From Escherichia coli (lineage in GTDB: Bacteria > Pseudomonadota > Gammaproteobacteria > Enterobacterales > Enterobacteriaceae), in NCBI RefSeq assembly GCF_003018255.1, contig NZ_CP027440.1: a stretch of DNA of 64,000 bases; one strand, 5' to 3'. The notes beneath the pieces were generated by a model that worked only from the letters and a program-made list of their open reading frames with translations, had not been told where the DNA came from and searched no databases. Position numbers and translations under genes: made by a program. This document shows positions 55,478 through 58,263 of this stretch, one piece after another; the first letter of the stretch is position 1; every line of letters begins with the position of its first letter.

Positions 55478-56933
55478 ATGAGCGGAAAACCAGCGGCGCG
55501 TCAGGGAGATATGACTCAGTATGGCGGTCCCATTGTCCAGGGTTCGGCAGGTGTAAGAATTGGCGCGCCCACCGGCGTGGCGTGCTCGGTGTGTCCGGGC
55601 GGGATGACCTCGGGCAACCCGGTAAATCCGCTGCTGGGGGCGAAGGTGCTGCCCGGCGAGACGGACCTTGCGCTGCCCGGCCCGCTGCCGTTCATTCTCT
55701 CCCGCACCTACAGCAGCTACCGGACGAAGACGCCTGCGCCGGTGGGGATTTTTGGCCCCGGCTGGAAAGCGCCTTCTGATATCCGCTTACAGATACGCGA
55801 TGATGTACTGGTACTCAACGACAACGGCGGACGGAGCATTCACTTTGAGCCGCTGCTGCCGGGTGAGGCGGTGTACAGCCGCAGCGAGTCCCTGTGGCTG
55901 GTGCGTGGCGGTAAGGCAACGCAGCCGGACGGCCACACGCTGGCACGGCTGTGGGCGTCGCTGCCGCCGGATATCCGGTTAAGCCCGCATCTTTACCTGG
56001 CGACCAGCAGCGCACAGGGGCCGTGGTGGATACTGGGGTGGTCTGAGCGGGTGCCGGGTGCTGAGGACGTACTGCCAGCGCCGCTGCCGCCGTACCGGAT
56101 GCTTACCGGGCTGGCGGACCGCTTCGGGCAGACGCTGACGTACCGGCGTGAGGCCGCCGGTGACCTGGCCGGGGAAATCACCGGCGTGACGGACGGTGCC
56201 GGGCGGGAGTTCCGTCTGGTGCTGACCACGCAGGCGCAGCGGGCGGAAGAGGCCCGTAAACAGCACACCGCTTCCTTATTTTCCCCTGACACCCCCCGCC
56301 CTCTTTCAGACTCTGCGTTCCCCGACACACTGCCCGGTACGGAATACGGCCCCGACAGGGGCATCCGTCTTTCGGCGGTGTGGCTGATGCACGACCCGGC
56401 ATACCCGGAAAGCCTGCCCGGTGCGCCACTGGCGCGGTACACGTATACGGAAGCCGGTGAACTGCTGGCGGTATATGACCGCAGCAATACGCAGGTGCGC
56501 GCTTTCACGTATGACGCGCAGCACCCGGGCCGGATGGTGGGGCACCGTTATGCGGGAAGGCCGGAGATGCGCTACCGCTACGACGATGCGGGGCGGGTGG
56601 TGGAGCAGCTGAACCCGACAGGCCTGAGTTACCGCTACCAGTATGAGCAGGACCGCATCACCATCACGGACAGCCTGAACCGGCGAGAGGTGCTGCATAC
56701 AGAAGGCGGGGCCGGGCTGAAGCGGGTGGTGAAAAAAGAACTGGCGGACGGCAGCGTCACGCACAGCGGGTATGACGCGGCAGGAAGGCTCACGGCACAG
56801 ACGGACGCGGCGGGACGGCGGACAGAGTACGGCCTGAATGTGGTGTCCGGCGATATCACGGATATCACCACGCCGGACGGGCGGGAGACGAAATTTTACT
56901 ATAACGACGGGAACCAGTTAACGGCGGTGGTGT
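55478..56933 (+). pseudogene. rhsD: Rhs protein, N-terminal part (PAAR-like N-terminus and start of YD-repeat core), interrupted by an IS element
   Basis: Product MSGKPAARQGDMTQYGGPIVQGSAGVRIGAPTGVACSVCPGG...; reading frame runs into IS sequence and stops at 56971. Confidence 0.85.
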
Positions 56934-56967
56934 CCTTGACCCACGATATTCAGACAGTCGTTGTATC

Positions 56968-57849
56968 TTAAGTTGACGTTACCCGCTGACGTCGATATTC
57001 CCTTGGTGAGAGATAACCTAACGCACTATGCGGATGGGTTTCATTGTAATGCTCGATCGCCACTGCAAGGTTATGCAATGCCGTTCTTACATTCGGTTTC
57101 GGCATGAACGCGATGTAGTCTTCTTTCATCGTTTTCACGAACCTTTCTGCCATTCCATTGCTCTGAGGGCTACTGACTGCCGTTGTGCAGGGCTCCAGAT
57201 TCAACTCTCTGGCGAACTGCCGTGTTTCATGAGCTGTATAAGCCGAACCGTTATCAGTCAGCCACTGGATTGGCCGTTCCGCTCCTTTATCGCCAAAGCG
57301 TTTTTCTATTGCTCCTAACATGACATCCTGCACCGTTGCTTTGTCATAACCTCCCGTGCTTGCGGCCCAGTCTATGGCTTCACGATCGCAACAGTCCAGT
57401 GCGAACGTGACACGCAGTTTTGCGCCATCATCACAACCGAACTCAAAGCCATCGGAACACCAGCGCTGGTCGCTTTCCTTCACCGATATTCGGCCTTTAT
57501 GTTCCCGCTGCGGCCGTGAAGGTTTGTCATGTAACAACAACAGGTTATTTTCGCTCATTATCCGATAAACGCGCTTTGCATTCACGAACGGCACTCCTTT
57601 GTTACGGGACTGTCGTCTGAGAATGGCCCAGACACGACGATAGCCATATGTCGGCATATCGCTGATGATATCAAGGATACGTGCTAACACTTCCGCATCC
57701 GCAGCCTCATCACATCTGCGACGACGTTTATTCGGCTTATTACCAGATGTTTTCATCCGTTGTGCCAGTTGCGCACGCGACACGCCCAGAATACGGCTTA
57801 CCAGGGTTATTCCTTGTCCGTTGGCAACAAGGGCGCATGCGCTATCCAT
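56968..57849 (-). CDS. IS3-family transposase OrfB (DDE integrase core)
   Basis: Product contains ...WCSDGFEF...[12 protein letters not shown]...WLTDNGSAY...HPHSALGY..., IS2 InsD-like. Confidence 0.85.
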
Positions 57850-58232
57850 TTTCGCGACTGACCATACTCCACCGCTTCTTTGAGGATCTCAACTTCCATG
57901 GTTTTCTTACCCAGCAAGCGCTGTAACTCTTTTATTTGTTTTATAGCGGCAGCCAGTTCTGAGGCAGGAACGACATCCTCTCCGGCAGCAACAGCAGTGA
58001 GACTTCCTTCCAGATATTGTTTTTTCCACTTAAACAACAGGCTGGGCTGAATACCATGCAAACGCGCCACATGGGACACCGTCATACCGGGTTCCATTGT
58101 CTGCTGAATAATGGCGATTTTTTCCTGAGGAGTTTTACGTTTACGAAGCTCCTGCCCCAGCAAAATTCCAGTCATCTCAAAATTAGCACTAGTAGACATA
58201 TATCCAAGCCTATCTCTTATTTTAAGATACAT
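57807..58232 (-). CDS. IS3-family transposase OrfA (HTH)
   Basis: Product contains ...[43 protein letters not shown]..., IS2 InsC-like. Confidence 0.85.
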
Positions 58233-58263
58233 CCACTGTCTGGCGTTTCAAGGGGCCGGTTCA

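Follow-up and report, generated by a model that had tools for sequence, protein, structure and literature searches.

An ISEc48-like insertion sequence with a conserved A_AAA motif as its probable frameshift site and 15-16 bp target-site duplications

Introduction

The active transposase of the insertion sequence (IS) IS2 is the OrfAB fusion, which is made "at a low frequency" from an A6G slippery window (PMC3219604). A 64,000-nt stretch of the Escherichia coli contig NZ_CP027440.1 (assembly GCF_003018255.1), hereafter the window, carries on its minus strand a 1333-bp element of the IS2 group that interrupts an rhs gene and has no A6G heptamer in the overlap of orfA and orfB. An initial annotation of the window had taken the missing heptamer as a sign of a degenerate frameshift signal, suggesting that OrfB may be translated on its own and that the element may be impaired in transposition. 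The element is an intact member of the IS2 group (IS3 family), within which it belongs to an ISEc48-like branch, and we consider it likely that it makes OrfAB by low-frequency -1 frameshifting on the tetranucleotide A_AAA.

Tetranucleotide motifs are known as frameshift sites in this family. In the ISfinder IS1 and IS3 families, 87 tetramer users stand against 403 heptamer users, and A_AA.A is "well represented" among them (PMC4066793). In the same work, all 16 tetramers were assayed; together with the IS3 pseudoknot, A_AAA gave 0.256% frameshifting over a background of ~0.064%, and A_AAG gave 5.64%. It was argued there that low-efficiency motifs keep the transposase low. Rules for the flanking stimulators were derived by Sharma et al. 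from 271 IS3-family members (PMC4066793): an in-frame Z_ZZN is preceded, at 6-17 nt, by a Shine-Dalgarno (SD)-like sequence and followed by a hairpin that is 17-140 nt long, starts 4-10 nt downstream, opens with a G-C pair and then three or more further pairs, and has an unfolding energy of at least 7.6 kcal/mol.

A second property by which these elements are compared is the length of the target-site duplication. The IS3 family is described as conservative, with 3, 4 or 5 bp according to subgroup and 5 bp for the IS2 subgroup, whereas IS481, IS1202 and IS481EU duplicate their targets in discrete lengths that differ by steps of about one helical turn (PMC10045372).

Results

The orfA/orfB overlap holds a single candidate slippery motif

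Read from the minus strand, the overlap is GGT CAG TCG CGA AAA TGG ATA GCG in frame 0 and GCG AAA ATG GAT AGC in frame -1 (Table 1). The initial annotation had described CGA AAA TGG with only four A's and no A6G heptamer, together with an in-frame ATG at the beginning of orfB, and rereading both frames bore out these observations: TCG CGA AAA TGG occupies 57857-57846 with its four A's at 57852..57849, and the ATG lies at 57849..57847. As a productive -1 shift is possible only within 57891..57807, we searched the 82 nt of open -1 frame for a heptamer that might have been overlooked. They contain no X_XXZ_ZZN heptamer, and A_AAA is their sole in-frame Z_ZZN tetramer. The frameshift motif expected of an IS3-family element is thus present as a Z_ZZN tetramer. 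Comparison with IS2 confirmed that the difference in the heptamer is real, as IS2A of E. coli K-12 has GCA AAA AAG TGG at the homologous position, where GTG is the annotated start of insD1.

A run of four A's could by itself arise by chance. Its conservation exceeds chance, as became clear from relatives collected at 80 loci, with one genome per species, plus annotated copies from E. coli and Klebsiella. The relatives fall into three branches defined by OrfB identity, which is 62-69% between branches. Branch A comprises this element, ISEc48 and copies from Yersinia, Rahnella, Citrobacter, Pantoea, Enterobacter, Klebsiella and Ca. Sodalis endolongispinus. Every intact copy of it has TC[G/A] CGA AAA TGG; CGAAAATGG is fixed in ISEc48 and each sampled branch-A member, and A_AAA is invariant across nine genera. 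The relatives that carry the identical site, from Yersinia to Ca. Sodalis, have 73-80% OrfB identity, so the site is fixed over a branch that diverges by up to ~27%. Branch B (Aeromonas, Lonsdalea, Pluralibacter, Entomohabitans and Trabulsiella) has GCA AAA AAA TGG, and branch C (IS2 and relatives from Klebsiella, Raoultella, Superficieibacter and Erwinia) has A AAA AAG TGG. Judged by this distribution, the missing heptamer appears to be a normal trait of the lineage and no defect.

The codons around the site are also unusually constant. In 11 branch-A sequences, CGA, AAA, GTG and GAG do not vary, whereas the third position varies in 44 of the 62 other codons whose amino acid is conserved (71%). 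CGA is one of six codons for Arg. As translation does not use the -1 frame upstream of the site, the last A of CGA matters solely for slipping.

The ATG of orfB follows from the frame-0 codons

The ATG could nevertheless be the start of an independent OrfB, made either there or by re-initiation after orfA, that works in trans with OrfA and renders the fusion dispensable. Separate OrfB products are known for IS911, IS150 and IS3, the OrfB of this element has its own HTH_21 domain, and an ATG or GTG is conserved here in all three branches. The last point is fully accounted for by the coding of frame 0: Lys-Trp is encoded here in all three branches, which forces [A/G]TG in the -1 frame; branches A and B read ATG there, and IS2 reads GTG. 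Because Lys (AAA) plus Trp (TGG) dictates these letters, the ATG gives no independent evidence of an OrfB start. Moreover, the nearest SD-like sequence is GGAG, 17 nt upstream of the ATG, a spacing that exceeds the range for efficient initiation; none lies at a working distance. Upstream of the ATG, the -1 frame also stays open over 42 nt, and the invariant synonymous A of CGA is relevant to slipping alone. The fusion is moreover the active form in IS2 (PMC3219604). Nothing here requires independent synthesis of OrfB, and we regard a dispensable fusion as unlikely. The suggestion of the initial annotation that OrfB is translated alone from its ATG therefore loses its basis, as the ATG is a by-product of Lys and Trp, no SD sequence is suitably placed, and IS2 has GTG there.

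Predicted stimulators flank the tetranucleotide

An SD-like GGAG lies upstream of the motif within GTGGAG (57867-57872), which is invariant in branch A with its A_AAA and in branch B with its A7. Branch C, which has A6G, carries GTTGAA, GTTGAG or GTCGAT in its place. Retention of GTGGAG beside the weaker motifs and its replacement in the branch with the most efficient heptamer would fit a compensation between motif strength and stimulator.

Downstream of the motif, we predicted a 72-nt branched hairpin in which 57842..57834 and 57779..57771 form a closing GC-rich stem of 9 bp, the first pairs being G-C, C-G, G-C and C-G. In a consensus fold of 23 non-redundant relatives, drawn from each of the three branches, RNAalifold recovers the 9-bp stem. 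Its arms pair in 98.6% of the cells, and the pairing collapses when the register is slid. At one position of the stem, C-G is replaced on both sides by U-A in five sequences including ISEc48, and another pair alternates between U-G and C-G. Conservation, spacing and the one compensatory pair are what speak for the hairpin as a probable functional structure. The predicted cassette follows all the rules of PMC4066793, as A_AAA is preceded at 14 nt by GGAG and followed, behind a 6-nt spacer, by the 72-nt hairpin.

A model for OrfAB synthesis and the points that weigh against it

On this anatomy, tRNA-Lys on AAA would re-pair one base back, onto the identical overlapping AAA, and reading would resume at AUG GAU AGC to give the junction ...GQSRK-MDSAC.... 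The slip would be aided by anti-SD pairing with the GGAG 14 nt upstream and by the 72-nt hairpin, which, 6 nt downstream, would stand at the mRNA entry channel. Most ribosomes would stop at UAA (57809..57807) and yield OrfA, presumably a DNA-binding regulator. We infer that slipping occurs at A_AAA, is stimulated by the SD-like sequence and the hairpin, and would be of low efficiency. The conceptual OrfAB fusion of 402 aa is continuous with the family model: it scores 278.8 bits against NF033516, 'IS3 family transposase' (cutoff 160), over model positions 2-369 of 369. A_AAA is a weak yet recognised class of signal. ISEc48, and a copy from the strain SCU-171 that is 99.5% identical to this element (WP_085948812.1), have the identical site and are labelled 'programmed frameshift' by NCBI. 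As a side observation, copies of the same sequence bear this label in some records and are left unnamed in others.

Several points weigh against frameshifting on A_AAA. Here it is a prediction from sequence, and the reporter output of A_AAA with the IS3 pseudoknot was just ~4x background (PMC4066793). The NCBI annotation is model-based and non-experimental, as shown by junction residues that are inconsistent between records (SPK, SKK and SRKL, and GKK for IS2) and that the DNA does not encode. The exact fused OrfAB sequence is absent from the protein collection; since the pipeline joins the two frames at an arbitrary point, the junction residue varies among near-identical NCBI products (SPK, SKK). 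The hairpin shows no excess stability over shuffled sequence (z = -0.77), and as its stem is highly conserved and codes in two frames, one pair only is informative; because of these two points, the structural evidence is moderate.

A Klebsiella product that reads ...SRKLDSA was considered as a naturally fused frame and rejected. Two Klebsiella plasmid copies show CGAAAATGG, and the L is an annotation artefact; DNA encoding this product was not found by exact look-up.

Recent movement of copies that carry this site

Eight or more different sites in chromosomes and plasmids carry a copy at least 99% identical to the element, and the flanking duplication differs from site to site. SCU-171 carries three of them, one on the chromosome and two on plasmids, which share a private single-nucleotide polymorphism (SNP), A at IS position 852, and are flanked by three distinct duplications of 15-16 bp. 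The common SNP together with the different duplications indicates recent transposition within the SCU-171 lineage. Ca. Sodalis endolongispinus accounts for >50 of the 80 relative loci, with the same site. Of the IS3-family copy-out/paste-in route, which passes through a figure-of-eight and a minicircle, it is the outcome alone that is seen here, as multiple new insertions with duplications. The copy in the window differs from the consensus of the 1336-bp copies by a 3-nt deletion 5' of the coding sequence (CDS) and one synonymous SNP, and by nothing else. The evidence says that the element is intact and recently mobile and, as far as its sequence tells, unimpaired.

These copies bear directly on the view that the signal has decayed, so that OrfB alone is made from the ATG, little or no OrfAB is produced and transposition is impaired. 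The overlap does lack the heptamer, A_AAA was 22x weaker than A_AAG in the reporter (PMC4066793), and one near-identical copy is annotated as a frameshifted pseudogene. That copy owes its status to the loss of 1 nt elsewhere, at IS position 912, which leaves the slip site unaffected. Decay is difficult to reconcile with a site fixed throughout branch A and with site-bearing copies that moved often and recently, and the ATG on which it depends is, as described above, forced by the frame-0 codons and 17 nt away from GGAG. We thus hold it to be highly improbable. What stands of the initial annotation is that the site is short and weaker than A AAA AAG; its degeneracy does not stand beside a site that is fixed across the branch and accords with the rules for a frameshift cassette, nor does impaired transposition beside near-identical copies at many sites, the SCU-171 trio and >50 copies in Ca. 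Sodalis.

Slippage of RNA polymerase, adding or deleting an A in the run to give the fusion, is hardly credible, since the runs that support it are far longer than four A's and the conserved SD-like sequence and hairpin at ribosomal spacing favour a translational event, although the sister branch, with its runs of A7 and A8, could sustain such slippage and some IS3-family elements use transcriptional realignment (PMC6211511).

Two observations on the copies may be added. Copies at least 99% identical occur in lengths of 1332, 1333 and 1336 bp. One cause is a 3-nt AAC indel 5' of the CDS at IS position 70 (window ~58193), AAC being missing from the window copy; the other is an in-frame TGT deletion at IS positions 722-724 (window ~57540) in some plasmid copies. 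Furthermore, Ca. Sodalis shows a massive expansion of a branch-A element in which many copies are truncated or have no matching duplications, as recombination and decay would be expected to bring about in the genome of a young endosymbiont.

Branch A makes 15-16 bp target-site duplications

The element is flanked by an exact repeat of 16 bp, as opposed to the 3-5 bp of the IS3 family and the 5 bp of the IS2 subgroup. DH5alpha has an rhsD without the insertion; there, the left flank aligns to 101-237, the right flank aligns to 222-312, and the two share one slightly diverged copy of the 16 bp. This single copy in the empty site establishes that the 16 bp were duplicated on insertion.

The long duplication is a property of the branch. 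Duplications of 15-16 bp were found in 17/17 informative copies of a branch-A sample of genome contigs. Among the E. coli copies with at least 99% identity, the window included, 7 of 11 have exact duplications of 15-16 bp and an eighth has 15 bp with one mismatch; five of the eight ISEc48-like copies (six of them annotated ISEc48) have 15-17 bp. In branches B and C, all informative copies (12/12) have 5 bp. A genuine 5-bp event also occurred within branch A: the ISEc48 copy on p3R-1 (NZ_CP049349.1) is flanked by 5-bp GTATC, and its reconstructed empty site is present, with 100% identity, in >540 plasmids. Two discrete duplication lengths, which differ by about one helical turn, are therefore produced in this lineage. 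For a second candidate with short duplications (ATAG flanks), no matching empty site was found.

We also considered a preferred TTAAC target or a longer end, as megablast ran 6-8 nt past the left inverted repeat (IRL), through gttaactg. This was rejected: the flanks of ~30 copies share no target sequence, and the extension is therefore due to chance.

The duplication pattern of the ISEc48-like branch is solid, and 15-16 bp is unusual for the IS3 family. We found no description in the literature of long duplications in the IS3 family, ISEc48 or ISEcl1, although the ISfinder entry of ISEc48 may record it. A side observation concerns the Klebsiella pneumoniae plasmid p2018N17-066-2_MCR8 (CP044391.1), in which a branch-A relative with CGAAAATGG and a 16-bp duplication adjoins the mcr-8-associated response-regulator gene; this relative may be the element named ISEcl1 in the literature.

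Extent, classification and host gene

The boundaries of the element were defined by megablast and by copies elsewhere as 56931..58263. Its ends are imperfect terminal repeats of ~41-42 nt with the TG...CA of the IS3 family, IRL beginning TGAACCGG... and the right inverted repeat (IRR) ending ...AAGGACA, and its partly overlapping open reading frames, with orfB in the -1 frame, are likewise those of the family. For orfA we took the ATG that NCBI uses in identical copies; other in-frame ATGs are located at 58199 and 58232.

The best specific NCBIfam models are IS2 TnpB (410.2 bits) and IS2 TnpA (171.5 bits). Because the IS2 models are the best ones and their scores fall below the cutoffs of 597 and 229, respectively, the element is to be placed by similarity in the IS2 group, and IS2 itself is excluded. 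The traits of IS2 proper, namely the A6G window, a TA tip of IRL and a 5-bp duplication, are replaced by CGAAAATGG, a TG tip and 16 bp. Nor is the element an isoform of ISEc48, a rank for which ~95% DNA identity or more is usual, as it shows 87-89% to the copies annotated ISEc48.

At the ybbA-ybbP-rhsD locus, the insertion divides a gene for an Rhs core protein. A search of 5,426 complete E. coli genomes found the rhs insertion in none of them, the best coverage of the IS plus flanks being 86%, which corresponds to the IS alone; on this count, the insertion looks strain-specific and recent. The window contains no further copy of the element.

Table 1. Features of the ISEc48-like element and its surroundings (positions in the 64,000-nt window; MFE, minimum free energy)
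Feature	Position	Strand	Remarks
Complete IS2-group insertion sequence	56931..58263	-	1333 bp; 88% identical to ISEc48; at least 99% identical to un-named 'IS3 family' E. coli copies
IRL, ~42 nt	58222..58263	-	5' start TGAACCGGCCCC; two ends aligned
IRR, ~41 nt	56931..56971	-	3' terminus GGGTCAAGGACA
orfA, 122 aa	58175..57807	-	HTH_Tnp_1 domain (Pfam); stop TAA at 57809..57807
orfB, 293 aa	57849..56968	-	HTH_21, rve and rve_3 integrase-core domains (Pfam); read in the -1 frame with respect to orfA
Stretch with open -1 frame within orfA	57807..57891	-	82 nt after the stop codon 57891..57889
SD-like GGAG	57867..57870	-	14 nt 5' of the tetramer; candidate frameshift stimulator
A_AAA tetranucleotide, candidate slippery motif	57849..57852	-	Last A of CGA plus the Lys codon AAA
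ATG, -1 frame	57847..57849	-	Predicted first codon after the slip; mechanically listed orfB start, beginning at the last A
Predicted 72-nt branched hairpin	57771..57842	-	Begins 6 nt past the motif; MFE -28.8 kcal/mol; inner 7-bp hairpin
Target-site duplication, IRL side	58264..58279		CCACCGCCGTTAACTG on the minus strand; exact 16-bp repeat
Target-site duplication, IRR side	56915..56930		Exact 16-bp repeat abutting the element end
Rhs core protein gene, ybbA-ybbP-rhsD locus	55478..61038	+	Divided by the insertion into 55478..56971 and 58276..61038

Discussion

An IS3-family element that does not have A AAA AAG is not thereby defective, which corrects an over-reading of the missing heptamer. 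Annotators should also seek Z_ZZN tetramers with flanking stimulators. The NCBI pipeline already handles the site as a programmed frameshift, albeit with an inconsistent placement of the junction. As the element is common on plasmids of E. coli and Klebsiella, including an mcr-8 plasmid, its activity bears on the reading of plasmid rearrangements.

For specialists, the 15-16 bp duplication of branch A is more unusual than the frameshift site. Related transposases with 62-69% OrfB identity that give 5 and 15-16 bp, respectively, make a tractable pair for the spacing of the strand-transfer sites. The ISEc48-like branch may have altered its target-capture geometry, giving 15-16 bp, or 5 bp plus about one helical turn, and occasionally 5 bp. 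Because the long duplications, the weak A_AAA tetramer in place of the A6G/A7 heptamer and the TG at both ends occur in one and the same branch, they suggest that the dose of transposase and the architecture of the transpososome were re-tuned together, which is a tentative idea.

Among the described elements, ISEc48 ('IS3-like element ISEc48 family transposase' at NCBI) has the identical cassette TCG CGA AAA TGG ATA GCG CA and the same stem with a compensating U-A pair. Its open reading frames are of equal length (CDS of 1208 nt), it ends in TGA...ACA, and it makes duplications of 15-17 bp. It differs in its DNA identity of ~88% and in its name, the present element being called only 'IS3 family transposase' by NCBI.

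IS2 (IS2A, insC/insD) is of similar length (1331 versus 1333 bp), and shares the reading frames 0 and -1, a junction at the same codon and the 9-bp stem. However, IS2 has A AAA AAG followed by GTG, and GTT GAA in place of the SD-like GGAG. Its IRL starts with TA (TAGACTGGCCCCC), its duplication is 5 bp, and its OrfB of 301 aa is 62-66% identical.

With IS3 and other users of tetranucleotides (A_AAG, A_AAA and U_UUY), the element would share a Z_ZZN read by one tRNA, a downstream RNA structure and a low output (PMC4066793). IS3 itself combines the far more efficient A_AAG with a pseudoknot, whereas here A_AAA stands with a predicted long branched hairpin and an upstream SD-like sequence. In its discrete duplication lengths, 5 versus 15-16 bp within one IS lineage, the ISEc48-like branch resembles IS481, IS1202 and IS481EU with their ~5, ~15-17 and ~25 bp, although these are one-ORF elements of other families.

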